A stretch of DNA of 64,000 nt from Dehalococcoidia bacterium (GCA_009377715.1 WHTN01000003.1:14396-78395), one strand, 5' to 3'. Positions 6,783 through 33,449 are shown, counted from the first letter of the stretch. Translations and numbers: made by a program. The notes: generated by a model not told the origin, from the letters alone.

Positions 6783-7658
6783 CTAGATGCTCGGCTCGGC
6801 CTCGAATGATACGGGGTCCAGGCCGGCAAGCTCCCGTAGTATATTGATGTTCTCTTTGTCCGGACCTTCTTTGTTGAACCCCGGCACTTCTAGCAGGAAC
6901 GGGACGTCTCGCAAGGCGCGATGCCCTAAGATTAGTTCGAAGCCCTCACGCCCGATGTAGCCATCACCGATATTCTCGTGCCGGTCAACGCCGCCGCCGA
7001 GAGGGATTTTGGAGTCGTTAGCATGGATCGCCACCAGCCGGTCTAGGCCTACGTCGCGGTTGAACTCCTCCAACGCCTCCTCCAAGCCGTCCGCTGTGGC
7101 GATGTTGTAGCCTGCCGCGTATGAATGTTGAGTGTCCACGCATACACACAGGCGCTTATCGCCGATCTCCTTGATGATCGTCCCGAGCTGGATGAACTTC
7201 GAACCGATGCCGTCTCCCATGCCGGCGCTGTTCTCTAGGATAAGGCAGGCGTCATCCGGCGAATTCGTGAGGATTTTGGTGATCGACTCGATTATTTGTG
7301 GAAGGACGCTCTCATATCCTGCGCCCTTATGACTGCCGAGGTGGAAGATGACGCCGGTTGCTCCAATTTGCGATGTAGTGTTCATGTCGGAGGCGAGCGC
7401 GTCTTCGGACTTGGTCAAGTTGTCAGGATTGGCGGTCGCAAGATTTACCAGGTAGACGCCATGAATGAACGTAGGCGTCACATCAGCATCCAGCGACTTG
7501 CTTCGGAAAGCCAGTACTTGTTCGTCCGCGAAAATACGCCGCCGCCAGGTCTGAGGCGCCGAGCTAAAGATCTGGATGCAGTTGGCGCCGATCGCCTGTG
7601 CCCTGTCGATGGCCTTATCAATGCCTCCCGAAGTTGATACGTGTGCGCCGATTTTCAT
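6783..7658 (-). CDS. nfo: Endonuclease IV (AP endonuclease family 2)
   Basis: MKIGAHVSTSGG start and conserved His/Asp/Glu metal ligands spaced as in Nfo. Confidence 0.85.
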   Translation of the reverse strand: MKIGAHVSTSGGIDKAIDRAQAIGANCIQIFSSAPQTWRRRIFADEQVLAFRSKSLDADVTPTFIHGVYLVNLATANPDNLTKSEDALASDMNTTSQIGATGVIFHLGSHKGAGYESVLPQIIESITKILTNSPDDACLILENSAGMGDGIGSKFIQLGTIIKEIGDKRLCVCVDTQHSYAAGYNIATADGLEEALEEFNRDVGLDRLVAIHANDSKIPLGGGVDRHENIGDGYIGREGFELILGHRALRDVPFLLEVPGFNKEGPDKENINILRELAGLDPVSFEAEPSI

Positions 7659-7898
7659 ATCTCTCCACCCTCGAAAAGTCTTGCTGAGACAGTTTCTAGC
7701 TAGACGTGTAAGAAAAAACCCTGCGATATTGTATCAGGAGAAGGGTAATGCGGACAGGCCGACTGTCTCTATCCGAGTCTGTTAAGAACTCTCTGCGGTA
7801 CCATTACTGACAAGCCGTGTTTCGTTTCTTGCTTTAGCAGGGGGTTGCAAAGTGGCTATAGGGATCGGGCATAATAAGCCGTTGGACTATAATATTAA

Positions 7899-10371: not shown

Positions 10372-10446
10372 TGCGGGAGTAGCTCAGTGGTAGAGCTCTT
10401 GCCTTCCAAGCAAGATGTCGCGGGTTCGAGTCCCGTCTCCCGCTCC
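10372..10446 (+). tRNA. tRNA-Gly (anticodon UCC)
   Basis: GCGGGAGTAGCTCAGTGGTAGAGC...anticodon loop CTTCCAA...GGTTCGAGTCC...CTCCCGCTCCA. Cloverleaf with encoded CCA. Confidence 0.9.
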
Positions 10447-10469
10447 ACTTTTGCGCTTGAGGTAAACCA

Positions 10470-11638: not shown

Positions 11639-12496
11639 ATGGCTAAAATTCTAAAACTGGATCACATGTTATTGGTGGGGGCAGTGATTCTTACTGTATT
11701 GTTCGCCAGCGCTATGGCGTTCTTGTTGGTATCAGGAGGTAGTCCGAAACCCACTGTGGCTCAAATTGTCGACCAGGCGTCAGAGGCATCTATTGTTCCG
11801 CCAGCGGGCAATGTGCTCTACGTCAAGACCGATATTTACCGTAGATATAAACCTGATGCGGACCAGGCGCCTGCAGAAGGCCCCGAAGGAGATAGGCCGA
11901 GTTTATATTCACTAATTCCCGAGAGAAGGATTTTTGAAGTATGGATGGAGATTGCTGATTCTGGTGGCCTCGTAAGCCAACGCTACGGGATTCTTACTGA
12001 TCAATCTGGCCAAGTTATTCAGGAGGAACTCTATGATGGGGATGCTGAATTCCTTCATGAGGCTTTTCTTAATAGGGTAATAAAGTTTCCTGATCAGGAG
12101 CCCCCAAAGGCTGGCGTAACTATCAATATTGATGAACTACTGGCAGCGGACAATGCAGAACTGATCGGTGAAGGTTCATTGGCTGGGGAATCAGTGTATA
12201 TCATTGAGGTTAGACGCGTACCTACGCCCGGAGAGCTAAAGCAGGAAGGGGACTATGTCTCCCCTTACTATGCCGATCTAGCGCCTGTTGAACTGGTGTC
12301 ACGCTATCAGATAGCGAAAGATTTCTACTTTCCATCAGGCAGGGAGCTATTTGCCGTTCAGGCGGACGGTTCTCGCCACTTGGTAAGCCATAACCTAAAA
12401 GTTGAGATATCTACGATGCCCGCAAGCCAGCTTCCGGATGACTTCTTTAGCCTCAAGCATGCTGCTGGCGCTGATGTAGTTGAGGCAAAGCGCTAG
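11639..12496 (+). CDS. Hypothetical membrane-anchored extracytoplasmic protein
   Basis: N-terminal TM helix then a soluble domain. Lies in a low-GC stretch. No confident family. Confidence 0.45.
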   Translation: MAKILKLDHMLLVGAVILTVLFASAMAFLLVSGGSPKPTVAQIVDQASEASIVPPAGNVLYVKTDIYRRYKPDADQAPAEGPEGDRPSLYSLIPERRIFEVWMEIADSGGLVSQRYGILTDQSGQVIQEELYDGDAEFLHEAFLNRVIKFPDQEPPKAGVTINIDELLAADNAELIGEGSLAGESVYIIEVRRVPTPGELKQEGDYVSPYYADLAPVELVSRYQIAKDFYFPSGRELFAVQADGSRHLVSHNLKVEISTMPASQLPDDFFSLKHAAGADVVEAKR

Positions 12497-12508
12497 GAGG
12501 CCAGGAAG

Positions 12509-13033
12509 ATGAAACTTATATTCAAAGTTAGCGTCGTTCTCGCATTGTCCTTACTTAGCGTAATTCTTTCACAAAGGGATTCGACCGCATACCACCTTAT
12601 GACTTGTAGTTCGGACTATATTGAAGGAATCGAAGGGCATACGTTATCAGGATATAACTGCATGAGTTTTGAAGACGGTACAGGATTTAGCTGGTTTAAT
12701 CGCAGCTGGGGAGCTTGGAACCCGGCTGGTTATATAATCATCGAAGAGGTCGAAGGTTATGATAGGTGTGAATCGACTGACCCATGGGACCTAAGGATTA
12801 ACGACTCAGATTACGCATTCTATACACAAGTACTGTGGGTTGACGCTTACGGCACGGTTCAGGACTGTGGGCAAACTCAACAGCATGAATATAGAAGTAT
12901 CGGCAAGCATTATTGGGAAGATCCATCAGGAGACCTATTAAGGGAGGTATGGACGTTCGTGTTCCTTTTGGGGCTGCTTAGGCTTTCACCCAGGTGCCGT
13001 TGTATCTCTCCGGGAAGCCGGGCGCCTGTTTGA
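12509..13033 (+). CDS. Hypothetical secreted Cys-containing protein (the 3' end overlaps the convergent gene; the true stop may be earlier)
   Basis: Signal peptide, several Cys and Trp residues. Low-GC stretch. No family recognised. Confidence 0.35.
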   Translation: MKLIFKVSVVLALSLLSVILSQRDSTAYHLMTCSSDYIEGIEGHTLSGYNCMSFEDGTGFSWFNRSWGAWNPAGYIIIEEVEGYDRCESTDPWDLRINDSDYAFYTQVLWVDAYGTVQDCGQTQQHEYRSIGKHYWEDPSGDLLREVWTFVFLLGLLRLSPRCRCISPGSRAPV

Positions 13034-14819: not shown

Positions 14820-15356
14820 TTATCTGCCTACCTCGACCTTGTGCCGGTCGTATTCGGCCTGTTCAAGCTCCTGCGAATCGGCTATGACGCCTAGGTGATG
14901 CCGGAAGACCATCTCCCCGCCGAGCCAGCCGGATATCGCTAATATAATGACGCCTACGGCGTGCAGCGCCAGGACGGCTGTCAGACGCTGCCCGGTTACC
15001 GCGCCATCATCCGCCATCAAAATCGCGGCGGCTACGAAGATGCCTACTGTCGTTAGATTTATGATCATATGGGCGGTGGCAATGCCTCTGGCCTTGCTGT
15101 AGACGGCCATCGAGAAATAATCGGCGAACCCCGGGACGGCCGCCATTAGGCCCATAAAAGTAGCGCCGATCCCTGTCCAGAAAGAGATGTCGTACCAAGT
15201 CTGGTCTTTATCGGTCGCCAGATAAACGAAATCCGCGATCAACGTCCAGACGAATAGGCCGATCGCCAACGGCACTAGCATCGGATGTATAGGATGACCC
15301 TCAATAGCAAAACGACTCCGCATGCTAGACCTCCGATTTGATAGAACGAGACCCAA
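14820..15356 (-). CDS. DUF2231-like multi-pass membrane protein
   Basis: Hydrophobic 4-TM pattern with a conserved His pair. Directly downstream of the UbiA gene. Confidence 0.45.
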   Translation of the reverse strand: MGLVLSNRRSSMRSRFAIEGHPIHPMLVPLAIGLFVWTLIADFVYLATDKDQTWYDISFWTGIGATFMGLMAAVPGFADYFSMAVYSKARGIATAHMIINLTTVGIFVAAAILMADDGAVTGQRLTAVLALHAVGVIILAISGWLGGEMVFRHHLGVIADSQELEQAEYDRHKVEVGR

Positions 15357-15453
15357 TGTTACTTAGATAGTCTAGACTGAAATCTATTAAAACAGGGTAA
15401 ATAGAAAAGAGGTCGGCATAACAAAACGGTATCGAACTTATATGCGCGCAGAA

Positions 15454-16308
15454 CTATAAAGCCGCTAGCCAGCTGGTCGCCAAGGCGATAGAGCTTCCCA
15501 TTATCGCTGGCCAGTGCGCAGACTTGTACCGGGACGTTGTCGATATTACAGCCGTTACGAGCAGCCCGACTGATGCGAAGAACAAAGCGTTCGGCATTCC
15601 CAACCCTGGCCACAGCCCCACGGCTAGGGCTTGCGCCAGCAGGACCGATAGCCAGCAAGCCAGATACGCCTGCTTGGGTGTCAAGCGATGCGCCAGTCCT
15701 TCGATCCCATGCGCTGCGTCCGATTTGATATCTATGATGGTATCGGCCAGATGGATCGCTATCACCAAGGGAGCGCCGCTCACGTAGGCCAAGCAGAGCT
15801 GAAAATCGAAACGGCCGACTGCTTCGAAGGCAGCGAGAGGCAGAGTCGGTAGGCCTACCCAGAACGGCAGCCAGCTCAAAGCCGTGCTTTTAAGCCATGC
15901 GTTGTAGACAAAGCCGGCCGCTACGCCGATAGCGACCAAAACTGCCAGGCCTAGGCTAAGAAAGCCGGCGACGGCAATTCCAGCGCCTGCTAAGAGTACA
16001 GCAAAACCCAAAGCGGTTGACGGCTTCACGTAGCCTTGAGGCAGCGCCCGCCACGGTTTCGTTGAGGCGTCCAGTTCGCGGTCGCAGTAGTCATTATGGA
16101 GCGATATCGCGAGCTGCGTGAGCAGCAACGAACTCAACAGCACTGCCAGTTCCACCGCCGGTGGCCAGCCGGTGACCGCGGTGGCAGCGAAGGCTGTCGT
16201 GCCGAGCAATACGGCGATGATCGGCGGCAGGTGCAGCAACTCGACATAAGCGATAAGCCTAGGCCAGGAGCCGCTATGACGAAGACGGTAAACGTTCGAG
16301 GTTTCCAT
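15454..16308 (-). CDS. UbiA family aromatic prenyltransferase
   Basis: Polytopic membrane protein with the NDYCDRELD Asp-rich motif. Start placed at METSNVYRL to avoid overlap with the KAS gene. Confidence 0.7.
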   Translation of the reverse strand: METSNVYRLRHSGSWPRLIAYVELLHLPPIIAVLLGTTAFAATAVTGWPPAVELAVLLSSLLLTQLAISLHNDYCDRELDASTKPWRALPQGYVKPSTALGFAVLLAGAGIAVAGFLSLGLAVLVAIGVAAGFVYNAWLKSTALSWLPFWVGLPTLPLAAFEAVGRFDFQLCLAYVSGAPLVIAIHLADTIIDIKSDAAHGIEGLAHRLTPKQAYLACWLSVLLAQALAVGLWPGLGMPNALFFASVGLLVTAVISTTSRYKSAHWPAIMGSSIALATSWLAAL

Positions 16309-16321
16309 ATATTCGATACGT

Positions 16322-17572
16322 TTAGAGGTTGCGCCAGCGACCCAGCACAAGGCTGGCGTTGATGCCGCCGAAGCCGAAAGAGTTCTTGATCGCATAATCG
16401 GCTTCGATTTGTTGTCCACAGGGAGGCACGTGGTTCAATTCACAGGCGCTATCGGGACAGACTAGGTTCGCAGTGGGCGGTAGCCAGCCACGGTTCAACG
16501 CCATCGCTGTAATCGCCGTCTCGATAGCGCCTGTGGCGCCTAAGGGGTGGCCGTGCAGCCCTTTCGTGCCGCTTACATAAGTCGTGTCGGCGTGCTTTTG
16601 TAAGGCAAGGCGTATAGCGGCGGCCTCCGCGGCGTCGCCCAGGGGAGTGCCGGTCGCGTGGGCGTTCAAATACCCGATCTGCGCAGGAGAGATCTCGGCG
16701 TCGTCGAGGGCCTGTTCGATGGCCCGGGCCGCTTGCTTCGCGGAGGGCAACGGTTCCGTCATGTGATATGCGTCGTTCGTCAAGCCGTAGCCTAAGACCT
16801 CGGCGTGAGGTCGGGCGCCGCGCTCCAGGGCGTGTTCTAGCTCTTCCAATATAAGGACAGCAGCTCCCTCACCCATCATGAAGCCATCGCGGTCTTGATC
16901 GAAGGGCCGACAGGCGTGTTGGGGGTCGTCGTTATGTGTCGTCATGGCCTTGATCACGGAAAACGCGCCGAACGTTAGCGGCGCGAGTGGAGCTTCCGCT
17001 CCTCCGGCTAAAGCGAGGCTCGCACCGCCGGAGCGGATCAGCCGGAAAGCTTCACCGATAGCCACGACGCCGGATGCGCAGGAGTTCGCGTTGCCGATGA
17101 CCGGTCCATTTATGCCGAACTCGATTGAGACATTCGTTGCACCGGCGCCGCCGAAAACGGCGAGCGCGAGCATCGGGGCGGCCGCTTTTATACCTCCGGT
17201 CAAAAATCGCTCGTGCTGTTGCTCTGCGAAGGCGATCCCTCCCAGGGCGCTCCCTAGATAAATAGCTGTCGTTTCGCGGTCGAAGCAGGTTTCACTGAGG
17301 CCGGCGTCATGGAGCGCTTGCTTACTCGCGGCGATGGCAAACTGCGAATAGCGGTCGAGTCGGTGAGTTTTGCGCTCATCGATATAGTCCAGCGGATCGA
17401 AGTCCGAAATCTCCATCGCAACCTGTGAGCGAAAAGGAGAGGCGTCGAAGCGGGAGATCGACCGTCCAGCCAGAGTCCCTGCTTTAACGCCTCTCCAGAG
17501 GCCCTCGCGTCCCGAACCGATCGGCGTGATCGCCCCGATGCCGGTTATGACGACGCGACGGTCTGCCTTCAT
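16322..17572 (-). CDS. Beta-ketoacyl-ACP synthase (KAS I/II-like)
   Basis: Active-site Cys (NANSCASG) and His-His (LNAHATGT, GLHGHPLGA). Thiolase fold length. Confidence 0.8.
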   Translation of the reverse strand: MKADRRVVITGIGAITPIGSGREGLWRGVKAGTLAGRSISRFDASPFRSQVAMEISDFDPLDYIDERKTHRLDRYSQFAIAASKQALHDAGLSETCFDRETTAIYLGSALGGIAFAEQQHERFLTGGIKAAAPMLALAVFGGAGATNVSIEFGINGPVIGNANSCASGVVAIGEAFRLIRSGGASLALAGGAEAPLAPLTFGAFSVIKAMTTHNDDPQHACRPFDQDRDGFMMGEGAAVLILEELEHALERGARPHAEVLGYGLTNDAYHMTEPLPSAKQAARAIEQALDDAEISPAQIGYLNAHATGTPLGDAAEAAAIRLALQKHADTTYVSGTKGLHGHPLGATGAIETAITAMALNRGWLPPTANLVCPDSACELNHVPPCGQQIEADYAIKNSFGFGGINASLVLGRWRNL

Positions 17573-18045
17573 TTACCCTCCGTCGATTCGGTTGTCTGTA
17601 GAGCGCCCTGGCTTTCGGCTAAGGCTTTGATCGTCTGCAGGGTTTTGCCTGCGATGTACGCGACGAACAGCGGCCCGATGATGCGATTCGCCACCCAACC
17701 GCCGATAAGCGGCCAGCGAAGCCGCAGGTCGTGCCGTATCGTCACTTTCACCGCTTCTGGGCCGGGCTCAAACGTCCAGGCGACGTCCATCCCCTTGGTG
17801 ATGCCTCCGACGTGGTGGTAGGTTATCGTTGGCTCGTCCGGGATCAGTTCCTGCACTGCCATCCAACGGACGGGGATCCAGCCCCTCCGCGCCGCCATCT
17901 CGGCCAGGCGGCGGTTGCCTTCTTCCCGCACTACGCGCACCCAGCGGTAATGCGGCAGGATATCCGGCCAGCGGTCGATTTCGGAGGCGTACTTGTAGAC
18001 CGTTTCAAGTGACGCCTGGATTACGGCAGAATTTTCAGTATGCAT
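17569..18045 (-). CDS. SRPBCC superfamily protein (polyketide cyclase/dehydrase or Coq10-like lipid-binding)
   Basis: 158 aa with a START/Bet v1-like pattern. 4-nt overlap with the KAS gene. Confidence 0.55.
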   Translation of the reverse strand: MHTENSAVIQASLETVYKYASEIDRWPDILPHYRWVRVVREEGNRRLAEMAARRGWIPVRWMAVQELIPDEPTITYHHVGGITKGMDVAWTFEPGPEAVKVTIRHDLRLRWPLIGGWVANRIIGPLFVAYIAGKTLQTIKALAESQGALQTTESTEGK

Positions 18046-18055
18046 CTCTCTTCCC

Positions 18056-19258
18056 TTATGGCTTTAACAGCGACCACAGATAACGCGGCCTTAGCACCTT
18101 TCCCGCCGGCGAATAATCGCCCAGCACTTCCGTCAGACCGCGCGCTACCTGCGCTCTGGCAGCCAGCCGGTCGATTACGTAGTCGAACAGCTTCGGCTTG
18201 CCTAAAAAGAACTGAACGAGCGAACAAACGCGCTCCTTATCGGCGAAAGCCGACCTGCGTGCCGCCGCATAACCGATAGGAACGTTAGATTCCTCGCGAA
18301 GTGCCGCTTCTAGCGACGCCGTAGCTAGCTCCGCTCCCCGTAGCGCTCGATAGATACCTTCGCCCGTGAAGGGGTCGCGGAAGCCGGCGGCGTCGCCGAC
18401 CAGCAAGTAGCCTGGGCCTACCACGTTCCTGACTTTATGGGCCAACGGCCCGATCCCACGTACCGGCGTCACACGCCGGGCCGGCCCCAGAGCGGCCCTG
18501 ACGCCAGGGAATTCCGCAACCCTTTTGTCGAAATAAGGTTCCATCGGCCCTCGGTCGGTCGGGCGCTCGAGGTCTTCTACCAGCCCAACGTTGACTAGGC
18601 CGTTGCCGACCGGCGCTAGGCCGCAGTACACCTTCCGCCCTGTGTGCATTTCGCCGTAGTCCGTGATAGCCGCAGCGCCCTCATAACGCGCCACCAGGCC
18701 GATCCGGCGCGGCCAGTCTGGATCCGCGTTTAGGCCTAACGATCGGGAGATGACAGAGTGCACGCCGTCCGCACCAACGACGAAGCTGGCGCTTATAGTT
18801 TGTTCATCGCCATAACCTGACCTCGCTCTCACGCCTGCCACGCGGCCATCTTCGACGATCACATCCGAAACTCGTATATGCTCCCGGACCTCGGCTCCGC
18901 AATCGCGTGCATAAGTTAGAAGGGCGTTGTCGAATAGAGGCCGGGATATGCCCATCGCGTGACGGCTACATAATCCGGTCTGGGAATCAGCATAACTTTG
19001 GAGGAAGCTGTTGTGCCGGCCGAAAATCCTCATACCCCTTACTAGCGATAGGTTTAAAGCACTTACTTTCTCCATCGCGCCAAGGCGTTCCAAGACATCC
19101 ATCGTGCCTGGACTAAAGTACTCGGCGCAAGGTTTCTCACGCGGAAACTTCGCCTTCTCCAGCACCAAGACATAATGCCCTAGTCTTGCCAGCGAGGCGG
19201 CAGTAGCCGCGCCAGCTGGGCCGCCGCCTACAACAATAACGTCGAAACGCTCTCTCAT
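18056..19258 (-). CDS. FAD-dependent oxidoreductase, geranylgeranyl reductase family
   Basis: VIVVGGGPAGAATAASLARLGHYVLVLEK dinucleotide-binding motif, then geranylgeranyl-reductase-like sequence. Confidence 0.75.
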   Translation of the reverse strand: MRERFDVIVVGGGPAGAATAASLARLGHYVLVLEKAKFPREKPCAEYFSPGTMDVLERLGAMEKVSALNLSLVRGMRIFGRHNSFLQSYADSQTGLCSRHAMGISRPLFDNALLTYARDCGAEVREHIRVSDVIVEDGRVAGVRARSGYGDEQTISASFVVGADGVHSVISRSLGLNADPDWPRRIGLVARYEGAAAITDYGEMHTGRKVYCGLAPVGNGLVNVGLVEDLERPTDRGPMEPYFDKRVAEFPGVRAALGPARRVTPVRGIGPLAHKVRNVVGPGYLLVGDAAGFRDPFTGEGIYRALRGAELATASLEAALREESNVPIGYAAARRSAFADKERVCSLVQFFLGKPKLFDYVIDRLAARAQVARGLTEVLGDYSPAGKVLRPRYLWSLLKP

Positions 19259-19977
19259 GACCTAATCTCAGCGATCATCGCCGTGCGATAGCCTAGGCTT
19301 TTAATGAATGTAACTGCGCCTAATCCTGCCTCGTCGGCCAGCTCCGCCATCTCCTCTATCGTATAGGCGCGTTGCACAGATAGAGGCGCGTCGTGGCGCG
19401 TCAGCGGGTTCGTTGTTAACGTGCGACTAAGCGCCCAAGCGCTGAAATAGCCGAACCAGGTCCGCATGAGATCGTTTACGACGATACCGTGTTTGGCCAC
19501 CCTCCCCATCTCCGCAAGAGTTATTACAGCGTCCCGCGGGTTTAAGTGGTGAAGCAGTAGAGAGCATATTGCGACATCGAAGCTTCGCTTGGCGAAGGGC
19601 AAGCGTCTGGCATCAGCCAGCGCTACGTTGAGGGTTGTGTGTAACTCATCCGACAGAACATCGATGACCCCCAGGCTAAGGTCTACGGCGGTGACGGCTG
19701 CCCGGTATTCGCGGCGCTGCGCCCACGTCGCGATCGCACTTGGTATATCAGCCGCACCCGCACCAACATCGATGACCGTCAGTTCATCTCCCGGCTGTAG
19801 GTCAGGCAGCAACATCCTTAGCGCTCTTATGGTTAAACCCGTGCCTCCCAGCCACTTGTTTACCCGTTGCATGTCGGCTAGATTCGCAGCCAAAAGCACT
19901 GGATCGTGTCCCTCGCCGTCCAACATTTCTAGCTTTTCGCTTCTTATCATGCGAGGTGAGACTAACTTGATCATCAA
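19255..19977 (-). CDS. Class I SAM-dependent methyltransferase
   Basis: VIDVGAGAADIP motif I. 4-nt overlap with the downstream oxidoreductase. Confidence 0.7.
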   Translation of the reverse strand: MMIKLVSPRMIRSEKLEMLDGEGHDPVLLAANLADMQRVNKWLGGTGLTIRALRMLLPDLQPGDELTVIDVGAGAADIPSAIATWAQRREYRAAVTAVDLSLGVIDVLSDELHTTLNVALADARRLPFAKRSFDVAICSLLLHHLNPRDAVITLAEMGRVAKHGIVVNDLMRTWFGYFSAWALSRTLTTNPLTRHDAPLSVQRAYTIEEMAELADEAGLGAVTFIKSLGYRTAMIAEIRS

Positions 19978-20228
19978 TACGGTTATCCTGTCCCGAAAGA
20001 ACTAAAGCTAAGAGTTTGTGATAACTATAAAGTATACGGTTTAGGGTTGTCGCTAGCTTTTGAGTTTAGATTGCGGTCATTTCAGCGACGTAAAAAAGCC
20101 GCGATATCCCTTACAGACGTATCGCAATAGAGTTTGGTGAGCATTTTAAGCGTGGTATAACGGATTGAAGGTGCGAAAATAAAACAAAACAGTGGTCAGT
20201 GATTAAGGAGCAAATAAGGAGCGAATTT

Positions 20229-20464: not shown

Positions 20465-21817
20465 TTAAGGACAGCCGAGAAGTCCGGCTATTTTATCGGC
20501 CGGAACCGGGCTGCTAAAGAGATAACCTTGAGCCTCATCACAGCCTATGGATTTAAGGAAGCCTAATTGTTCTTGAGTTTCTAAGCCTTCGGCTATCACT
20601 CGTAGGCCCAAAGTGTGGGCCATTTCGACGATCGATTGCACGATGCACTTTACTCGTGCGTCAGCTTCAATGCTTGAGATAAAGCTGCGGTCGATCTTCA
20701 CGGTGTTTATCGGCAGGCCGGCGAGCGCTCCCAAAGACGAATAGCCAGTACCGAAGTCGTCCATCGCTATGCTGACGCCGTCATCTTTAAGCTCACGCAG
20801 TGCCGTAATGCTGGCCAACGCATCCGACATCGCCAGGCTTTCAGTAACTTCTACCTCTAAGCTTTCGGGAGATATGCCACTGCTCTTAAGCGCCTCTGCG
20901 ACCATTCGGCGGGCGACTCCGTGCTCCAGGTCCCGTCTCGAAAGGTTAACCGCCATGTGTAGGTCTGTAGCGCTGCGCTCTTGCCACTGCCTCAGTTGAG
21001 CGCTGGCAGTCCGGAGGACGAACTCGTCGATCGAAGTTATAAAGCCTGTCGCTTCGGCAATTGGTATGAATTCAGAAGGCGGAATGATCCCTCGCTCTGG
21101 ATGTAACCAGCGCACAAGGGCCTCTACCCCGGTGATCTTTCCGGTCGTAAGAGAAACAAGTGGCTGGTAATAGACTGTAAGCTCGTTGTGGTCGAGGGCA
21201 CTGTGAAGTTCCGTCTCCAGCAGCAGCCTATCTTTCGCTTTAGCGTATCGTGTGTCGTCGAAAATGGCGATGCCCGAACGGCTCGCCTTGGCTTCGTCTG
21301 TGGCCATCTCGGCGCAGGCAAGGACGTCGTCGGCGTGGCTGTATGCGCTGCTTCCTAAGGCGACACCGAAGGTAAACTCAACAGCGATCGATCTTTCGTA
21401 AATATCGAAAGGAGCCGCAAAAACGTCTCGAACTCGTTCAGCGAACTCTCGGGCCGCCTCTCTTAAGGCGCCAGTTTCTGCAAGGATGGCGTATTTGTCT
21501 CCCCCTATACGCGCCAGCTCTGCGGAGCCGATAAAGATGCCGCTCAGCCTGCGGGCCACAGCCATCAAGAGTTGATCGCCGGCGTTGTAGCCGAACGTTC
21601 CGTTAAAGGCTTTGAGCCGGCGAACGTCTAACGCAACGACAGCGAAGTTATAGTTAGCGTCACGCCTGGAGCGCCAGAGTGCCTCTCCGATCTGGCCTAT
21701 GAAGTTGGAGCGATCGGGCAAACCGGTGAGCGGATCGCGAAAACTTGGGGACGCGATACGCTGTCCCCAACTCTCGTGCGAAGAGCTGTTTTTGTTCGAG
21801 AACCTTCTTGCTAGCAA
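20465..21817 (-). CDS. GGDEF-EAL domain protein (c-di-GMP phosphodiesterase with a degenerate GGDEF domain)
   Basis: RDPLTGLPDRSNF GGDEF start. The A-site reads GGDKY (degenerate). EAL domain with EALVRW and later conserved motifs. Confidence 0.75.
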   Translation of the reverse strand: MLARRFSNKNSSSHESWGQRIASPSFRDPLTGLPDRSNFIGQIGEALWRSRRDANYNFAVVALDVRRLKAFNGTFGYNAGDQLLMAVARRLSGIFIGSAELARIGGDKYAILAETGALREAAREFAERVRDVFAAPFDIYERSIAVEFTFGVALGSSAYSHADDVLACAEMATDEAKASRSGIAIFDDTRYAKAKDRLLLETELHSALDHNELTVYYQPLVSLTTGKITGVEALVRWLHPERGIIPPSEFIPIAEATGFITSIDEFVLRTASAQLRQWQERSATDLHMAVNLSRRDLEHGVARRMVAEALKSSGISPESLEVEVTESLAMSDALASITALRELKDDGVSIAMDDFGTGYSSLGALAGLPINTVKIDRSFISSIEADARVKCIVQSIVEMAHTLGLRVIAEGLETQEQLGFLKSIGCDEAQGYLFSSPVPADKIAGLLGCP

Positions 21818-21904: not shown

Positions 21905-22462
21905 GTGATGGAGAACGGTGTTTTGATGCTTGTAAGCACTGCAGAACGGTACGCTTGGCTTACCGCTGGCGATCGAGAATTACTACTACAATGCCGCGAA
22001 GAGCACTATCGCTCCGGTGGCCCCGGAGGCCAGAGAAGGAATAAAGTCGAGACGGCCGTCCGAGTTTATCACTTGCCAACCGGGCTGATTGCTTACTCGG
22101 ACGACTCGCGATTAGTTGCGGAGAACCGCCCTAAGGCACTGCGCCGTCTGCGCGAAAGGATCGCCCTTGCGGTGCGAACCCCGTTTGATCTGGACTTGCC
22201 GAGGCTTCCTGCAGGGTTCGCGGCTCAACGGGGAGCTAACGGCAGCCTCTCCGTCAACAAAAGCAACCCAGTATACCCGGTGATTGTGGCGACGGCATTG
22301 GATTCGCTAGACGCTGCCGGCGGAAGTTACGCGGAAGCGGCAAAAGCATTAGGGCTCACGACTAGCCAGTTCATCCGCTTCCTACGTTCTGATCCAGAAG
22401 TATGGCGAGCGATAGAAGAGGCAAAAGCCAAGAAAGAGGCTTATGTCTCTAAGTCGAAATAA
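21905..22462 (+). CDS. RF-1 domain (GGQ motif) peptidyl-tRNA hydrolase family protein
   Basis: SGGPGGQRRNKVETAV GGQ motif typical of ArfB/class-I release-factor domain proteins. Confidence 0.6.
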   Translation: MMENGVLMLVSTAERYAWLTAGDRELLLQCREEHYRSGGPGGQRRNKVETAVRVYHLPTGLIAYSDDSRLVAENRPKALRRLRERIALAVRTPFDLDLPRLPAGFAAQRGANGSLSVNKSNPVYPVIVATALDSLDAAGGSYAEAAKALGLTTSQFIRFLRSDPEVWRAIEEAKAKKEAYVSKSK

Positions 22463-22673: not shown

Positions 22674-22750
22674 GGGCGGTTAGCTCAGTCGGCCAGAGCG
22701 CAGCGTTGACATCGCTGAGGTCAGTGGTTCAAGTCCACTACCGCCCACCA
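22674..22750 (+). tRNA. tRNA-Val (anticodon GAC)
   Basis: GGGCGGTTAGCTCAGTCGGCCAGAGC...anticodon loop TTGACAT...GGTTCAAGTCCACTACCGCCCACCA. Confidence 0.9.
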
Positions 22751-22992: not shown

Positions 22993-24750
22993 TTGTTTCA
23001 AGGAGTAGATACGATGGCAGTCGAATTAAGTAACATAAGCAAAGAGGAGCGGTTGCACAGGATGCGCCACTCCGCGGCACACATCATGGCAGAAGCCGTG
23101 CTCGAAATCTTTCCTGAGGCGAAGTTCGCTATCGGCCCGCCCATAGACACCGGTTTCTATTACGATTTCGATCTGCCCAGACCTCTCACCCCGGGGGACT
23201 TGCCGGTCATCGAAGCGAAGATGCGTGAACGCATAGCCAGTAATGTGCCATTCGTTTATTCGGACATAAGCAAAGACGAGGCGCGACAGCTTTTCGGAAG
23301 CCAGCCCTATAAGCTTGAGATCATCGAGGAGATCCCCGATCAAGAGGTAAGCCTCTATAAGCATGCGAATTTCGTAGACCTTTGCCAGGGCCCGCACGTC
23401 AATACCACCGCGGACGTCCCGGCGTTCAAGCTGGTTAGCACAGCGGGCGCCTACTGGCGCGGCGACGAGAGCCGCCCCATGTTGCAGCGTATTTACGGCG
23501 CTCTTTTTGAGACAGAGGAAGAGCTAAGCGGATACTTGCAGCACGTCGAGGAGGCGCAGCGTCGAGACCATCGCCGCTTGGGACGTGAACTCCAGCTTTT
23601 CATGACCGATCCCGTGGCGCCGGGCAGCCCGTTTTTCTTCCCGAAGGGCGCGTTCATCTATAACCGTCTAGTGCAATATGTGCGAGACCTTTACAAAGAA
23701 TACGGTTACGAAGAGGTGATAAGCCCGCAGGTCTACGGTGTAGATCTGTGGCGGCGCTCCGGGCACTACGAGAACTATCAGGAGAATATGTTCTTTATCG
23801 ACATCGAAGACCGAGAGTTCGGTCTAAAGCCGATGAACTGCCCCGGCCACGCGATGATGTACGCGGCGCGGACGCATTCTTACCGCGAGCTTCCAATACG
23901 GTACGCTGACTTCAGCAGGCTACACCGCTTCGAACGCTCCGGTGTATTGCACGGCCTAACTCGCGTTCGCAGCTTCGCCCAAGACGATTCCCACATATTC
24001 TGTACCCCTGACCAAGTTCAGGCCGAAGTCCACAATTTCCTACGCATGCTCTTGGATACGTACAAGATATTCAGCTTTAGCGATGTGCGCATTCAGCTTT
24101 CGCTGCGGCCTGAGAAGCGTGTAGGTACCGACGGGATGTGGGACCGGGCAGAAGATGCGTTGCGTAGGGCGCTGAACACTCAGGAGATCGATTTCCTTGA
24201 AATCCCCGGCGAGGGTGCGTTCTACGGCCCCAAGATCGATTTCATGGTGACGGACGCCTTGGATAGAGAATGGCAACTCGGCACCGTGCAGCTAGACTTC
24301 AATCTCCCTGAGCGCTTTGACCTCGAATACGTTACCGAAGATGGAAGCCGCGAACGGCCCGTCATGGTGCATCGTGCGGTATTAGGGTCGCTGGAGCGAT
24401 TCATTGGCGTGCTCATCGAGCACTACGCAGGCGCCTTTCCCCTGTGGCTCGCTCCAGTGCAGGCGACCCTGATCCCAATTGCCGATCGACATGCGGAGTA
24501 TTGTCGTGATGCGGCTGCCTTCCTAAGTAAATCCGGACTGCGAATCGAAGTGGACGCAAGCAATGAGCGCATGAACGCCAAAATACGGCAGGCGCAACTG
24601 CAAAAGGTGCCGTACATGCTCGTCGTCGGAGATCGAGAACTCGAAGCAGAAGCTGTATCCGTTCGCAGTAGAAGCGGTGAAGACCTAGGCTCCATGAAAG
24701 TTCCCGAACTTCAAGCCCGTCTACTTCACGAAATCGAAACGTATAAGTAA
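22993..24750 (+). CDS. thrS: Threonine--tRNA ligase (short form lacking the N-terminal TGS domain)
   Basis: Editing-domain HxxxH (HSAAHIM), class II catalytic motifs (FRVRSFAQDDSHIF, GxGxGxER) and anticodon-binding domain. Confidence 0.9.
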   Translation: MFQGVDTMAVELSNISKEERLHRMRHSAAHIMAEAVLEIFPEAKFAIGPPIDTGFYYDFDLPRPLTPGDLPVIEAKMRERIASNVPFVYSDISKDEARQLFGSQPYKLEIIEEIPDQEVSLYKHANFVDLCQGPHVNTTADVPAFKLVSTAGAYWRGDESRPMLQRIYGALFETEEELSGYLQHVEEAQRRDHRRLGRELQLFMTDPVAPGSPFFFPKGAFIYNRLVQYVRDLYKEYGYEEVISPQVYGVDLWRRSGHYENYQENMFFIDIEDREFGLKPMNCPGHAMMYAARTHSYRELPIRYADFSRLHRFERSGVLHGLTRVRSFAQDDSHIFCTPDQVQAEVHNFLRMLLDTYKIFSFSDVRIQLSLRPEKRVGTDGMWDRAEDALRRALNTQEIDFLEIPGEGAFYGPKIDFMVTDALDREWQLGTVQLDFNLPERFDLEYVTEDGSRERPVMVHRAVLGSLERFIGVLIEHYAGAFPLWLAPVQATLIPIADRHAEYCRDAAAFLSKSGLRIEVDASNERMNAKIRQAQLQKVPYMLVVGDRELEAEAVSVRSRSGEDLGSMKVPELQARLLHEIETYK

Positions 24751-26372: not shown

Positions 26373-27131
26373 CTAGCGGAACATATCCAGCTCGGGGGCG
26401 CGGACTAAGTCGGTCGCCTTGCCCTCGCCTTGGGGATAATCGTAACCGCGTACGATAACCACCGGCACCCTTTCCAGCTTGCCCATCGCTAACTCTGCGG
26501 CCGAAGCGAGCTCGTCCGCTGTGGCCATAACCGTGGCCCGCAAGTTGTAGCCGTGCGGGTCTTTCTGGTCGACGTAGTCCCGCTTCGCCGACATACCGGC
26601 CACGCCAACCGCAACATCCACTATCCCATCGCGCCACGGCCGACCGAAGCTGTCCGATATTACCACTGCCACGTCGATTCCCAGCAGGTTCATAATACTG
26701 GACCGGATTCCAAAGGCAGAGCGGTCCGCATCTTCTGGAAGTAGCGCGACGACCTCCTTATCGGGAACGTTTGAGGCATCGACGCCTGAGTTCGCACAGA
26801 CGAAGCCATGCTTCGTCTCCGTTATGATGACGCCGTGGTCCATGCGAACGATCCTGCGGCTCTCCTGCAAAACGATCTCCACCAGCCGGGCGTCTTTGGC
26901 ATAGGTTTCTGCGATCTCGCAAGCGAAAGGAGACGGTGTCACGTCCCGGAGGTCTACCAGACGGCCTTCTGCTTTGGAGACGATCTTCTGGGTGATCACT
27001 ACTACGTCCCGCTCTTGCAATTCGGTTCCTTGTTCGCGGGCGGCTTCGATGATAAGCGCGGTTAGATCCTGACCCGGTAGTATTTCGGGCAGACCTCGCA
27101 GAGGGATAAGGCGTATTTCTTGACTAGCCAT
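26373..27131 (-). CDS. cofE: Coenzyme F420-0:L-glutamate ligase (CofE/FbiB N-domain family)
   Basis: VVVITQKIVSKAEGR and ISDSFGRPWRDGIVDVAVGVAGM motifs. Confidence 0.8.
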   Translation of the reverse strand: MASQEIRLIPLRGLPEILPGQDLTALIIEAAREQGTELQERDVVVITQKIVSKAEGRLVDLRDVTPSPFACEIAETYAKDARLVEIVLQESRRIVRMDHGVIITETKHGFVCANSGVDASNVPDKEVVALLPEDADRSAFGIRSSIMNLLGIDVAVVISDSFGRPWRDGIVDVAVGVAGMSAKRDYVDQKDPHGYNLRATVMATADELASAAELAMGKLERVPVVIVRGYDYPQGEGKATDLVRAPELDMFR

Positions 27132-27140
27132 GGGCCTGGC

Positions 27141-27800
27141 TTACACTCCCGTGATCTTGATCGCGGAATGCGTCTTATAGTGCCGGTTGACGCTGATTAG
27201 CGCTGCCGTGAAGCCTTCGACATAGCGGGACACGGCTAAGACGCCTCCATCTATCGCTCGCACACCCTCTATCTTGTCGGTCAGGGCCATAACAACGCTT
27301 TTCGCGTCGCGGTCGTTCCCACAGATGATGACGTCGGCATCGATCGGCTTCTCGACTTTCGCCAGTTCGCTCGCATCTAGGTGATGAAAGCCGCTAACGA
27401 CTTTTGCTCGCGGCAAGAGCGCTTGGGCTTGCTCTGCAGCTGACCCTTCGGCTACAGATATGATCCGAGGCTGCCGATCGACGAACTCTAGTGGTACTAC
27501 GACATCGACGACTACTTTGTCTTCGACAACCCCGCTTATAGATTTCAAGGCTTCCACGTGCCCTGCGATCGGGACAGCGACGAAGACGATATCGGCTGCC
27601 TTCGCAGCCTCAGCGTTGCTCATCCCGCGCACTTCGCGGTTGGGCAGCAAGCTGGCGACTTTCTCCGTGGCCTCAGCCGCTCGTTCGGCGGACCGCGATC
27701 CGATGATCACATTCTCGCCGGCGTGAGCGAAGCGCATCGCTAAACCAAAGCCCTCTTGGCCGGTGCCGCCGATTATTGCTATAACGTACCTTGCCTCCAT
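27141..27800 (-). CDS. npdG: NADPH-dependent F420 reductase (Npd/Fno family)
   Basis: IAIIGGTGQEGFGLAMRFAHAGENVIIGSR Rossmann motif with Fno-like length. Confidence 0.8.
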   Translation of the reverse strand: MEARYVIAIIGGTGQEGFGLAMRFAHAGENVIIGSRSAERAAEATEKVASLLPNREVRGMSNAEAAKAADIVFVAVPIAGHVEALKSISGVVEDKVVVDVVVPLEFVDRQPRIISVAEGSAAEQAQALLPRAKVVSGFHHLDASELAKVEKPIDADVIICGNDRDAKSVVMALTDKIEGVRAIDGGVLAVSRYVEGFTAALISVNRHYKTHSAIKITGV

Positions 27801-28005: not shown

Positions 28006-28785
28006 CTAGCCCTTTGGCTGGTGCCTACGCTCGACGAGTCGAGCAAGAACGATGCCGATGCCATAGAGGACGATTATTGGCCCTGCCACGAACGACTGGG
28101 TAACCGGGTCAATGCTTGGTGTAACGACTGCCGCCAACACGAACGCTACGATGAGTGCAGCTCGCCACATACGTATAAGTTTCCCTGAGGTCGTGAGGCC
28201 TATACGGGCCAGGAACATAAGCACGAGAGGAATTTCGAAAGTTACCCCTGTCCAAAAGACTAGGCGCGTTACGAAGTCGATGTACGGCCCTATACGTATG
28301 AACGGCTCCGCCTGGTCGTCGCCGAAGCCGAACAGGAAACCGACGGCGGGCGGCATCATTATGTAATAGGCGAAAGCTGCTCCGCCCAAAAACGATAGGC
28401 TTGCCCCGAAGACGGTTGGGAGCAGCCACCGCTTTTCGTCCTTCGTCAGCGCCGGCGTAACGAACATGAGGGCTTGATACACAACTACGGGCATAGCCAG
28501 GATAAAGCCGCCTAGAAGGGCGACGCGAAAGTAGCTGCCGATATATCCGAGCGGTTCTGTGAAGATTAAGCGAAAGTCTTCGACCTCGTTTTCGGCGGGT
28601 CGGGCAAGAAAGTCGATGATATCTTGTGTAAAATAAACCGAAACGCCAGTAGCTATGGTTACCGCTAGGGCGGAGATAAGTAGACGATTTCGTAGCTCCT
28701 GGAGGTGCTCCAGGAGCGTTAAGTACTTCCCCTCTTCAGGCTCCGGCTCTACGGTTTGGCGCTCCGGATCTTGTTGAACGCTCAT
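28006..28785 (-). CDS. tatC: Twin-arginine translocase subunit TatC
   Basis: Six-TM profile. LQELRNRLLISALAV N-terminal motif typical of TatC. Confidence 0.85.
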   Translation of the reverse strand: MSVQQDPERQTVEPEPEEGKYLTLLEHLQELRNRLLISALAVTIATGVSVYFTQDIIDFLARPAENEVEDFRLIFTEPLGYIGSYFRVALLGGFILAMPVVVYQALMFVTPALTKDEKRWLLPTVFGASLSFLGGAAFAYYIMMPPAVGFLFGFGDDQAEPFIRIGPYIDFVTRLVFWTGVTFEIPLVLMFLARIGLTTSGKLIRMWRAALIVAFVLAAVVTPSIDPVTQSFVAGPIIVLYGIGIVLARLVERRHQPKG

Positions 28786-28824
28786 AGCAATCTGCCGTCA
28801 TTACGAGCGGGGTAAGGGTTGGAA

Positions 28825-29247
28825 CTAGCGGGGCGGATCACGGCGATCGAGCGGCACAACGTTTACGGGCCTGTTCTGCACCTCGTTATCGTTGGCCTTA
28901 CTTTCGCGATCCCTACCAGGCTCTTCTTGGATCGCCCGGTTGACTTCGGATGCCGAACGGTCGATATCTTCTTCTATCGTTTTCGCTTCGCTTTCGATCA
29001 CTGCGGAGGCCTCGCCAACGCTCTTCCGAGTTTCTTCGGCCTCTTTCTTCATCGCTTCGTACTCCGCTTCGAGGTCTGCCAGTTCTTCGCTGACCTGGGA
29101 AGTTACTTCAGCGGCGTATCGCCGGACAGTCCTCACGGTGCGGCCGATTTGAGCAGCTGTCTCAGGCAGGCGGTGCGGTCCTACTACCAGCAGGGCAACT
29201 AGCAGGACTAACAGAAGCTCAAGAACACCGACGCCAAAAAAGTTCAC
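28825..29247 (-). CDS. tatA: Twin-arginine translocase TatA/TatB family protein
   Basis: MNFFGVGVLELLLVLLVALLVVGPHRLPE with a conserved hinge, then a charged coiled tail (TatB-like length). Confidence 0.75.
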   Translation of the reverse strand: MNFFGVGVLELLLVLLVALLVVGPHRLPETAAQIGRTVRTVRRYAAEVTSQVSEELADLEAEYEAMKKEAEETRKSVGEASAVIESEAKTIEEDIDRSASEVNRAIQEEPGRDRESKANDNEVQNRPVNVVPLDRRDPPR

Positions 29248-29336
29248 CCAGCCGCCTCCACGTCCAACATCCCGATCACATGGATATTATACCGCAGCTC
29301 TTCGTTATGATCGTTGGCCCAGCCAGTTTGCGGCTG

Positions 29337-29603
29337 TTAGGCCTCTTCGTCCTCTATGCCGTGCTCTTCGATGTAGTTCACGGCGTCCTGGACGGTTACG
29401 ATCTTCTCGGCGTCCTCGTCGGAGATCTCAACTGTGCGGCCTTCTTGGCTAAACTCTTCTTCGAGCGACATGATCAGCTCTACCAGGTCCAGAGAATCAG
29501 CGTTCAGGTCATCTACGAACGAAGTCGCGGGCTTAATTTCATCCTCCTCGACTCCTAATTGCTCACTGATTATCTTCCTGACTCGTTCAAAAACTGTGGC
29601 CAA
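29337..29603 (-). CDS. acpP: Acyl carrier protein
   Basis: DSL phosphopantetheine attachment motif ([19 protein letters not shown]). Confidence 0.8.
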
Positions 29604-29619
29604 TTTTGCACCCCGTTCT

Positions 29620-30063: not shown

Positions 30064-30066
30064 AAC

Positions 30067-30813: not shown

Positions 30814-30814
30814 T

Positions 30815-31777: not shown

Positions 31778-31842
31778 CTCTCCTCGTTTGGGCCAAAAGG
31801 ATCGCCGAGAGTATAGCAAAAACAGCCTTGTCGGAGAAGGCC

Positions 31843-32043: not shown

Positions 32044-32045
32044 CT

Positions 32046-33447: not shown

Positions 33448-33449
33448 CC

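Follow-up and report, generated by a model that had tools for sequence, protein, structure and literature searches.

What would a bacterium make with an operon that sets a methyltransferase, a flavoenzyme, an SRPBCC protein, a fatty-acid-type ketosynthase (KAS) and a UbiA-family prenyltransferase side by side? The question is raised by five genes within a 64-kb stretch of DNA from a Dehalococcoidia bacterium (hereafter the window), for which the original prediction was a prenylated-lipid or quinone-like pathway. The predicted prenylation still applies to this genome, which carries the UbiA gene, while the scaffold needs revising and is likely a fatty-acid-primed polyketide phenol rather than an isoprenoid quinone. 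Sequence comparison and analogy suggest that the route encoded by this operon of a Chloroflexota genome is undescribed and probably leads to a prenylated phenolic lipid, because a methyltransferase and flavoenzyme pair known from alkylresorcinol and alkylquinone pathways is joined to a KAS and a cyclase-like protein in the place of a type III polyketide synthase (PKS).

Operon layout and conserved core

Six open reading frames, all on the minus strand, were verified at the positions originally proposed (Table 1), and Pfam and NCBIfam models confirm the five tightly packed genes for a methyltransferase (MT), FAD oxidoreductase, SRPBCC protein, KAS and UbiA, which have the look of a co-transcribed biosynthetic operon. 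The MT and FAD genes overlap by 4 nt, as do the SRPBCC and KAS genes, and 10 nt separate the FAD and SRPBCC genes. The predicted spacing of 4-nt overlaps or 10-13 nt gaps was thus confirmed, with the qualification that KAS and UbiA lie 13 nt apart only when the ATG at 16308 is used, and overlap by 29 nt under the public 298-aa gene call. At the upstream end, the true MT start may be an internal Met near 19950, and a consensus scan found sigma-70-like sites in the region at a number not above the shuffled expectation.

Table 1. Features of the operon and related elements in the 64-kb window
Feature	Position	Strand	Basis or remark
SAM methyltransferase (MT)	19255-19977	(-)	PF13649/PF08241; operon gene 1
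FAD oxidoreductase, geranylgeranyl-reductase (GGR) superfamily	18056-19258	(-)	PF01494; TIGR02032
SRPBCC protein	17569-18045	(-)	PF03364, E 1.4e-14
FabF-like KAS	16322-17572	(-)	PF00109 + PF02801
UbiA prenyltransferase	15454-16308	(-)	PF01040, E 2e-27; coordinates assume ATG start at 16308
DUF2231 membrane protein	14820-15356	(-)	PF09990, E 4.5e-30
Sigma-70-like promoter match	20024-20053	(-)	upstream of MT; consensus scan, 9/12 positions; weak evidence
Housekeeping acpP	29337-29603	(-)	fab cluster; 58% identity to E. coli AcpP

Conservation was counted over 80 species-level loci from Chloroflexota, Armatimonadota and Eremiobacterota. The KAS gene directly follows the SRPBCC gene in 69/69 loci, and the MT-FAD pair lies upstream of SRPBCC-KAS in 56 of 64, with eight loci carrying SRPBCC-KAS without it. 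Chance falls far short of explaining the arrangement, as dozens of independent genomes repeat this gene order; the genes flanking the module are not conserved between related loci. Sequence comparison thus delimits a conserved unit of four genes, MT-FAD-SRPBCC-KAS, to which UbiA is a variable addition. A lack of co-conservation in relatives would have counted against the original prediction, and the four-gene core is indeed kept; the predicted five-gene set is narrowed to this core, with UbiA as an accessory. The DUF2231 gene does follow downstream, about 100-130 nt past UbiA, but just one further locus (L006) has such a gene beside the module, and its membership in the system is doubtful.

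Several genes expected of polyketide pathways are missing. With two type III PKS proteins as queries, tblastn detected no type III PKS in the 64-kb window or within 8-10 kb in 85 related loci. No chain-length factor (CLF) was found in the window's cluster or in related loci, each of which gave one KAS match and no second KS-like gene, and no module locus contains an ACP gene. The predicted lack of an ACP or CLF partner is therefore true of the cluster itself, while the window does encode a housekeeping acpP, its only ACP gene, 12 kb away, whose product is the presumed carrier for the module KAS.

A methyltransferase and flavoenzyme pair shared with type III PKS operons

The MT matches NCBIfam model PRK06202 best (138 bits) and shares 28-31% full-length identity with MTs of type III PKS operons, for which PRK06202 is likewise the best model, in both sets more than 100 bits above the next. 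In an annotated plasmid collection, the genes of its closest full-length relatives are each directly followed by an FAD oxidoreductase gene and lie beside a type III PKS gene, an arrangement that held, with two variations, in all six plasmid loci checked, from four phyla. In the Deinococcus cassette the neighboring gene is annotated merely as bearing a KAS III C-terminal domain, not as a type III PKS, and in Novosphingobium (L087) a divergently placed MT gene adjoins an ACP-KAS-T3PKS-FAD cluster.

The FAD enzyme passes the GGR-superfamily model TIGR02032 (164.3 against a cut-off of 158.8), and its orthologues keep the motifs FPRxKxC[AS]EY, YxGLAP and GDAAGFxDPFTGEGI. Over 368 aa it shares 30% identity with the enzyme of a Paludisphaera MT-FAD-T3PKS operon, and it has a KxC(G/A)E(F/Y) motif in common with FAD enzymes linked to type III PKS genes, but its identity to the latter (20-30%) is not above that to other GGR- or halogenase-like enzymes. 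Its sequence neighbors in the PDB are flavin halogenases, at the top, and archaeal GGR. Despite these top matches, the enzyme lacks the WxWxIP motif of flavin-dependent halogenases, and 50 orthologues have Y-x-G-L-A-P at the corresponding place. On sequence grounds the predicted role is that of a ring hydroxylase or oxidase, with a reductase role also possible.

Together, the window MT and FAD enzyme are by homology members of the same families as the MT-FAD cassette found beside type III PKS genes, as in hidABC, the hierridin operon, in which the order MT, FAD enzyme, condensing enzyme forms an alkylresorcinol operon with a type III PKS (PMC6836626, PMC10896814). Like the window, hidABC and the homologous planctomycete operons place a PRK06202-family MT directly before a GGR-superfamily FAD enzyme, and they share with it the three-part gene order and a small self-contained operon drawing fatty-acyl starters from primary metabolism. 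The window differs in having a FabF-like KS and an aromatase/cyclase-like SRPBCC protein in place of the type III PKS, in identities of about 30% to the cassette proteins, and in the presence of UbiA. Analogous three-gene operons in actinomycetes make polyketide quinones (PMC9927152), and the agq cluster of Actinoplanes, as cited in PMC10896814, adds a UbiA-like prenyltransferase, as in the window. Likened by description, srsABC, pkqABC and agq share a predicted logic with the module, from alkylresorcinol through methylation to hydroxylation into a quinol or quinone, but the core synthase in all of them is a type III PKS, which the window module lacks. The quinone head-group tailoring noticed in the original prediction is thus borne out by the families of MT and FAD enzyme.

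The Novosphingobium cluster, with a FabF-like KAS and an ACP beside a type III PKS, also illustrates another reading, in which the module KAS, perhaps with the SRPBCC protein, would only ready a special acyl starter for a ring built by a type III PKS elsewhere. We regard this as very improbable: no such enzyme lies in the 64-kb window or within 8-10 kb in the 85 related loci, the KAS of L087 shares only 37% identity with that of the window and resembles FabF much less (340 bits), and the invariant aromatase/cyclase-like partner would be left unexplained.

The ketosynthase and its cyclase-like partner

The SRPBCC protein had been described as Coq10- or polyketide-cyclase-like, and the second description is the one that survives. 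The family profile matches BexL (4e-13), the WhiE aromatase/cyclase (ARO/CYC) (3e-11), TcmN (1e-7) and ZhuI, with no Coq10-type entry among its 12 PDB matches, and the top Foldseek matches of an AlphaFold2 model (pLDDT 90.8) include ARO/CYCs. A Coq10/RatA-type identity was ruled out by these profile matches and by a score of 22 bits on the RatA/Coq10-type model NF007999, against a cut-off of 258. Sequence and model thus place the protein with the ARO/CYCs of type II PKS systems. Its invariant polar residues are H32, Y33, R34, R54, Q65, H78 and H105; the equivalent of TcmN Tyr35 is kept in the family, and TcmN catalytic Arg69 is replaced by an invariant Gln. From its sequence affinities, it is predicted to be a cyclase/aromatase acting on a poly-beta-keto chain made by the KAS.

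These assignments bear on a variant of isoprenoid-quinone synthesis along the lines of the original prediction, in which an aromatic acid would be prenylated by UbiA and its head group tailored by the MT and FAD enzyme, while the SRPBCC protein would be a Coq10-like binder and the KAS would be incidental. Consistent with it are the UbiA gene in the window, the weak similarity of the MT to UbiE, MenG and MpqE (E 1e-9 to 1e-6), and that of the FAD enzyme to UbiH-type hydroxylases and MenJ. However, all of the equivalog models score far under their cut-offs, most modules lack UbiA while the KAS is always there, and the SRPBCC protein resembles ARO/CYCs, so that we consider this variant distinctly unlikely. 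The predicted departure from canonical ubiquinone, menaquinone and type II PKS layouts agrees with the low scores on the UbiE, MenG, UbiA, MenA and MenJ equivalogs, and with the absence of CLF and ACP.

The KAS is FabF-like and, judged from its sequence, catalytically intact with a family-specific remodelled acyl pocket. It narrowly misses the fabF equivalog TIGR03150 (481.1, cut-off 493.75), passes the PRK07314 subfamily model (471, cut-off 387) and shares 41-47% identity with canonical FabFs. When aligned to E. coli FabF, 57-59 of 59 orthologues keep the C163/H303/H340 triad, K335 and the F400 gate; the GFGG gating loop is also present. Unlike FabF of FAS II, the family invariably has G[ST]ALGG in place of GxGIGG and P-x-L-A-L (P-M-L-A-L) in place of SPFF[VI]P, and its gene follows an ARO/CYC-like gene and never adjoins acpP. 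With type II PKS systems the module shares a discrete KS bearing a Cys-His-His triad and a discrete SRPBCC-fold ARO/CYC related to TcmN, WhiE, ZhuI and BexL, but the window lacks a CLF, a dedicated ACP, a ketoreductase and a second cyclase, and its KS is much nearer to FabF (366 bits against T. thermophilus FabF) than to KS-alpha (292 bits against the actinorhodin KS).

The chief reservation is that the window's fab cluster (yceD-rpmF-fabD-fabG-nusB-acpP-tatA-tatC) lacks fabF, so that the KAS could instead be the cell's general FabF, and may be a general elongating synthase. The original description of a standalone KAS accordingly holds in that no CLF or ACP lies beside it, and perhaps not in the sense of an enzyme dedicated to the module. 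If the KAS were an ordinary FabF, the MT, FAD enzyme and SRPBCC protein would have fatty-acyl lipids, not a polyketide phenol, as their substrates. They might, for example, make the acids with a mid-chain methyl branch (12-methyl-18:0) that are typical of Thermomicrobia, through methyl transfer to a double bond and then flavin-dependent reduction, with the SRPBCC protein as a dehydratase/isomerase or lipid carrier. We judge this reading unlikely, while noting that fabF is absent, also after acpP, from the fab clusters of the window and of three related contigs, that the module KAS is the sole KAS in 64 kb and scores as FabF, that GGR-family enzymes reduce lipid C=C bonds, and that 12-methyl-octadecanoic acid and 1,2-diol lipids of unclear biosynthesis occur in Nitrolancea relatives (PMC3504966, PMC2615216). 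Against it, the module is never embedded in a fab cluster among the related loci, neither of the canonical motifs GxGIGG and PFF[VI]P is present in the KAS, the SRPBCC protein is nearest to polyketide ARO/CYCs, MT relatives adjoin type III PKS genes, and the recurrent recruitment of UbiA is given no role. The MT also lies outside the CMAS family, the known lipid-olefin methylases. Thermus makes 1,2-diols, and a diol role is disfavoured because TTHA0849, the Thermus SRPBCC protein, matches the family profile weakly.

The least probable of the readings weighed is one modelled on DarAB, in which the KAS would condense a pair of chains derived from fatty acids, head to head, to a cyclohexanedione that the flavoenzyme aromatises to a dialkylresorcinol. 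DarB is FabH-like. A ketosynthase and aromatase route from FAS intermediates does have precedent in bacterial dialkylresorcinols, but DarB forms a phylogenetically distinct ketosynthase class (PMC6836626), from which the FabF-like window KAS is set apart by description rather than by sequence. The eight loci with SRPBCC-KAS and no FAD gene also argue against this route.

A proposed route to a prenylated phenolic lipid

We propose that the module in this region is self-contained and makes a phenolic lipid of the membrane; all chemical steps are inferred here. First, the KAS would accept a long-chain acyl-ACP from fatty-acid synthesis and carry out several malonyl-ACP extensions with no reduction. 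Second, the SRPBCC protein would fold, cyclise and aromatise the poly-beta-keto chain into an alkylresorcinol-type ring, the task of the type III PKS in the hid, srs, pkq and agq clusters. The PRK06202-type MT would then methylate the ring, and the GGR-superfamily flavoenzyme would hydroxylate or oxidise it to a methoxy-alkyl-hydroquinone or benzoquinone. Finally, where a UbiA-family enzyme accompanies the core, as it does here and in a minority of the other genomes, it would add a prenyl chain.

The gene identities, the operon structure, the conservation of the four-gene core, the homology of the MT/FAD cassette, the ARO/CYC affinity of the SRPBCC protein, and the catalytic integrity and pocket change of the KAS are supported directly. 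The account built on them by analogy, in which FAS intermediates are turned by KS and cyclase into an alkylresorcinol-type ring that is then methylated, oxidised and here prenylated, seems to us about evenly balanced between right and wrong. Counted against the phenolic-lipid reading were the strongly FabF-like KAS and the fab clusters without fabF, the change of TcmN Arg69 to Gln, the unspecific 20-30% identity of the FAD enzyme, and the eight loci without MT-FAD. No paper describing the MT-FAD-SRPBCC-KAS architecture was found in the literature, nor any characterised precedent for a lone FabF-type KS with an ARO/CYC, without CLF, making an unreduced tetraketide; the latter was also counted against the reading.

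More tentatively, and with the balance tilting somewhat against it, the module may represent a two-protein aromatic polyketide synthase, in which a FabF-derived KS homodimer and an ARO/CYC-type cyclase, using FAS acyl-ACP and malonyl-ACP with no CLF or dedicated ACP, take the place of the type III PKS as alkylresorcinol/alkylquinone synthase across hundreds of species of Chloroflexota, Armatimonadota and Eremiobacterota. If true, the product might serve these soil phyla either as an alternative electron carrier of the membrane or as a dormancy lipid.

Since UbiA is accessory to the MT-FAD-SRPBCC-KAS core, the term prenylated holds for this genome but for only a minority of the rest. The protein scores 96.6 bits on PF01040 (cut-off 34.2) and has both Asp-rich motifs (NDYCDRELD and DTIIDIKSD). 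It reached no equivalog cut-off among the named subfamilies searched (UbiA, MenA-like, heme O synthase, BchG/ChlG, DGGGPS, EboC and SCO3242), the best being the SCO3242 family at 60 bits against 260, and its only PDB relative is DGGGP synthase (1.8e-5). By sequence, it is best placed in an uncharacterised subfamily of the prenyltransferase superfamily. UbiA recurs as an accessory in 9 loci, at two positions. The window type adjoins the module in the window, L003, L008, L028 and L031, and a second subfamily lies upstream of the MT in six loci. Such recruitment of two subfamilies at two positions fits a phenolic prenyl acceptor, by analogy with agq. UbiA orthologues are also found alone. In locus L030, a gene for an ABM monooxygenase follows the KAS gene.

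Gene content and conservation of the module

The original prediction described a tight minus-strand operon, and ORF, Pfam and NCBIfam analyses, together with a public gene call on an identical contig, confirm its genes and spacings. Six minus-strand ORFs within 14820-19977 carry the domains as first named, the operon spacings comprise two 4-nt overlaps, one 10-nt gap and one 13-nt gap, and the public call differs only in a longer UbiA start. A GGDEF-EAL protein is encoded immediately upstream on the same strand, beyond a 487-nt intergenic region.

Coordinates of the operon and other features of the window
Feature	Position	Strand	Remarks
Methyltransferase (MT)	19255-19977	-	class I SAM; sole strong NCBIfam match PRK06202, 138 bits (next model 38)
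Flavoenzyme (FAD)	18056-19258	-	geranylgeranyl-reductase (GGR) superfamily model passed, 164.3 (cut-off 158.8)
SRPBCC protein	17569-18045	-	PF03364
Ketosynthase (KAS)	16322-17572	-	fabF equivalog 481 (cut-off 493.75); PRK07314 subfamily 471 (cut-off 387)
UbiA protein	15454-16308	-	PF01040; no named subfamily matched
DUF2231 protein	14820-15356	-	downstream of UbiA
GGDEF-EAL protein	20465-21817	-
RF-1-domain (ArfB-like) gene	21905-22462
tRNA-Val(GAC)	22674-22750	+	between the ArfB-like gene and thrS
thrS	22993-24750
F420-0:gamma-glutamyl ligase and F420-dependent NADP oxidoreductase	26373-27800	-	side by side
fab cluster	28006-32588	-	yceD-rpmF-fabD-fabG-nusB-like-acpP-tatA/B-tatC
CT398-like zinc-ribbon protein	32746-33447	+	divergent from yceD
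Large serine recombinase	33411-34862	+	adjacent to the CT398-like gene
RNase P RNA, bacterial class A	35317-35665	+	Rfam RF00010, 305 bits
tRNA-Gly(TCC)	10373-10447	+
Two adjacent ORFs (285 and 174 aa)	11639-13033	+	N-terminal hydrophobic segments; no Pfam match
tRNA-Thr(CGT)	49149-49223	-

Relatives of the SRPBCC protein number more than 1,400, and a search through GTDB with one genome for each species placed it in at least 596 species. When the window's proteins were mapped onto the 80 best loci, KAS lay directly after SRPBCC in all 69 loci with enough sequence, and the MT-FAD pair lay directly upstream of SRPBCC in 56 of 64. These loci belong to Thermomicrobiales, Limnocylindria and other Chloroflexota, to Armatimonadota and to Eremiobacterota. 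The labels Binatia and Steroidobacteraceae were left out of the phylum count because the two module-bearing contigs concerned are probably mis-binned and Limnocylindria-like. The first (L067) has flanking genes in common with Limnocylindria loci, and its KAS shows 72% identity to one from that group; the second (L082) is a 6-kb contig.

UbiA adjoins the module in nine loci, three times downstream of KAS and six times upstream of MT, and the proteins at the two positions form two subfamilies with a mutual identity of just 30-35%. Close homologues of the window's UbiA are few and from Chloroflexota; a metagenomic contig (L003) repeats the full five-gene order, and some orthologues elsewhere stand alone. 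Orthologues outside the module occur in L001/L002 (10923-11786), followed in one lineage by a DUF2071 gene. DUF2231 adjoins the module in one further locus only.

A census of flanking genes in related loci (ORF clustering and Pfam, after antisense artefacts from naive ORF calling had been discarded) found no further conserved partner, whether ACP, chain-length factor (CLF), KR, thioesterase, acyl-ligase or exporter, and no type III PKS near the module. The conserved unit is thus four genes, with UbiA a recurrent accessory. Of the five-gene operon first described, the four-gene core is kept across phyla, whereas UbiA is accessory and DUF2231 is not kept. An aryl-polyene or classical type II PKS cluster was rejected because KR, DH, ACP and CLF are all absent.

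The obligate cyclase-like protein and ketosynthase

The SRPBCC protein had been likened to Coq10 or a polyketide cyclase; the Coq10 identity was rejected, and its affinity is with aromatase/cyclases (ARO/CYC). The only significant matches of the family profile are type II PKS aromatase/cyclases (BexL, 4e-13; WhiE, 3e-11; TcmN, 1e-7; ZhuI), and the best fold matches of an AF2 model (pLDDT 90.8) include the same enzymes, whereas the RatA/Coq10-type model scores just 22 bits. The equivalent of TcmN Tyr35 is kept in the family, and that of Arg69 is an invariant Gln. Thermus makes 1,2-diols, and synthesis of such lipids was rejected as the main reading because the solved Thermus SRPBCC protein TTHA0849 matches the profile weakly.

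The KAS shares about 41% identity with E. coli FabF, scores 366 bits against Thermus FabF, and keeps Cys163, His303, His340, Lys335 and the GFGG gate. It is nearly a FabF, but its score stays below the equivalog cut-off and its pocket motifs depart from the canonical ones: GxGIGG is replaced by G[ST]ALGG in all 59 orthologues and SPFF[VI]P by P-x-L-A-L in nearly all of them. The usual motifs are kept in four canonical FabF structures and in the canonical single-domain matches of an exhaustive KAS search, in which multi-domain PKSs with summed scores dominated, so that single-domain matches served for motif comparison only. We take the altered segments to line the acyl-binding pocket at the FabF dimer interface. 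A KS beside an ARO/CYC is common to this system and to type II PKS, but the module lacks their CLF and ACP.

A predicted tailoring cassette and a proposed route to phenolic lipids

The best full-length relatives of MT in an annotated plasmid collection (25-31% identity) were inspected at six loci from Planctomycetota, Alpha- and Gammaproteobacteria and Deinococcota. PRK06202 is the best model for these methyltransferases, as for that of the window. In five of the six an FAD oxidoreductase directly follows MT, with a type III PKS next to the pair; in Deinococcus the annotation of the gene in that position goes no further than a KAS III C-terminal domain. At the sixth locus (Novosphingobium), MT is divergent and adjoins an ACP-KAS-T3PKS-FAD cluster. 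The Paludisphaera order, MT-FAD-T3PKS, is that of hidABC, an operon that produces hierridins from an alkylresorcinol (PMC6836626) and whose arrangement recurs widely among planctomycetes (PMC10896814). Analogous three-gene operons of actinomycetes make alkylbenzoquinone "polyketide quinones" (PMC9927152), and the Actinoplanes agq cluster adds prenylation (Awakawa 2011, via PMC10896814).

Over 368 residues, the window FAD enzyme has 30% identity to that of Paludisphaera, and it carries a KxC(G/A)E(F/Y) motif that is also present in the other cassette enzymes; its orthologues keep FPRxKxC[AS]EY, YxGLAP and GDAAGFxDPFTGEGI. Searches of the plasmid collection with the FAD and SRPBCC proteins gave no informative matches, and the contexts of the best plasmid FAD matches (Ralstonia, Streptomyces) were uninformative. 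The nearest solved structures are halogenases and archaeal GGR, and a halogenase identity was rejected because the orthologues lack the WxWxIP motif. The cassette FAD enzymes of plasmid type III PKS operons (L086, L088, L096-L098) are kin to this relative of flavin halogenases. The halogenase of hierridin C is unknown and absent from the producer genome (review PMC6836626), and HidB-type enzymes might, judging by sequence kinship, be candidates for that step.

By sequence and gene context, MT-FAD is a predicted tailoring cassette, and all of its characterised or annotated relatives have a ring-forming polyketide enzyme as neighbour. In the present case the obligate SRPBCC-KAS pair takes that place. 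Most simply, this pair would be a non-orthologous replacement of type III PKS, and we give this phenolic-lipid mechanism, whose chemistry is predicted throughout, an even chance of being right. The KS would extend a fatty acyl-ACP with malonyl-ACP without reduction, and the SRPBCC protein would cyclise and aromatise the chain to an alkylresorcinol-type phenol. MT would then methylate the phenol, the flavoenzyme would hydroxylate or oxidise it to a quinol or quinone, and in this genome UbiA would prenylate the product. Primary metabolism would supply ACP, malonyl-ACP and starters; the window has fabD, fabG and acpP at a distance of 10-14 kb from the module. Three other readings fit the conservation pattern less well: an isoprenoid-quinone variant, the action in trans of a type III PKS, and a DarAB-like head-to-head condensation. 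In an Armatimonadota MAG (L030), the module KAS is overlapped at its end by a gene (7302-7850) with an antibiotic-biosynthesis-monooxygenase (ABM) domain; enzymes of this type turn polyketide phenols into quinones by oxidation.

In its working, the system would resemble the phenolic-lipid operons hid, srs, pkq and agq, whose defining type III PKS it lacks. The literature searched for this gene combination holds no description of the architecture. The usual rules of genome mining look for a type III PKS, a KS/CLF pair or DarB, and the module has therefore probably been overlooked. If the SRPBCC-KAS model is true, the module would join type III PKS, DarAB and type I systems as the fourth enzymatic way of making bacterial resorcinolic lipids, and a near-FabF ketosynthase would have become an iterative non-reducing PKS through one small cyclase partner. 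Mycobacteria and Streptomyces use alkyl-methoxy-quinones, the predicted product class, as alternative respiratory carriers. For this reason the module could matter to energy metabolism and dormancy in its carrier phyla, which are poorly studied and comprise mostly uncultured soil and thermal lineages.

The fab cluster and neighbouring features

The window's housekeeping fab cluster is unusual in layout: it contains no fabF, fabH or plsX, and three related contigs (L092-L094) share its gene order. With no fabF seen in these clusters, elongation in this lineage may depend on the module KAS alone, which is the chief reservation about the proposed mechanism. It would speak for a reading in which the operon may modify ordinary fatty-acyl lipids; one candidate product is the group of mid-chain methyl-branched acids found in Thermomicrobia (PMC3504966). 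The MT family, the ARO/CYC affinity of SRPBCC, the repeated recruitment of UbiA and the altered KAS pocket argue against it, as does the module never being embedded in a fab cluster; fab genes adjoining it were sought in the other loci and none found. A dual-use FabF is conceivable. Should these lineages have no FabF other than KAS, their fatty-acid synthesis would depend on an enzyme that is always paired with an ARO/CYC-like protein, in itself an unexplained trait.

The serine recombinase and CT398-like genes occupy the same place in L092-L094 and are thus not a recent insertion. The organism probably uses coenzyme F420, given the adjacent genes for F420-0:gamma-glutamyl ligase and F420-dependent NADP oxidoreductase.
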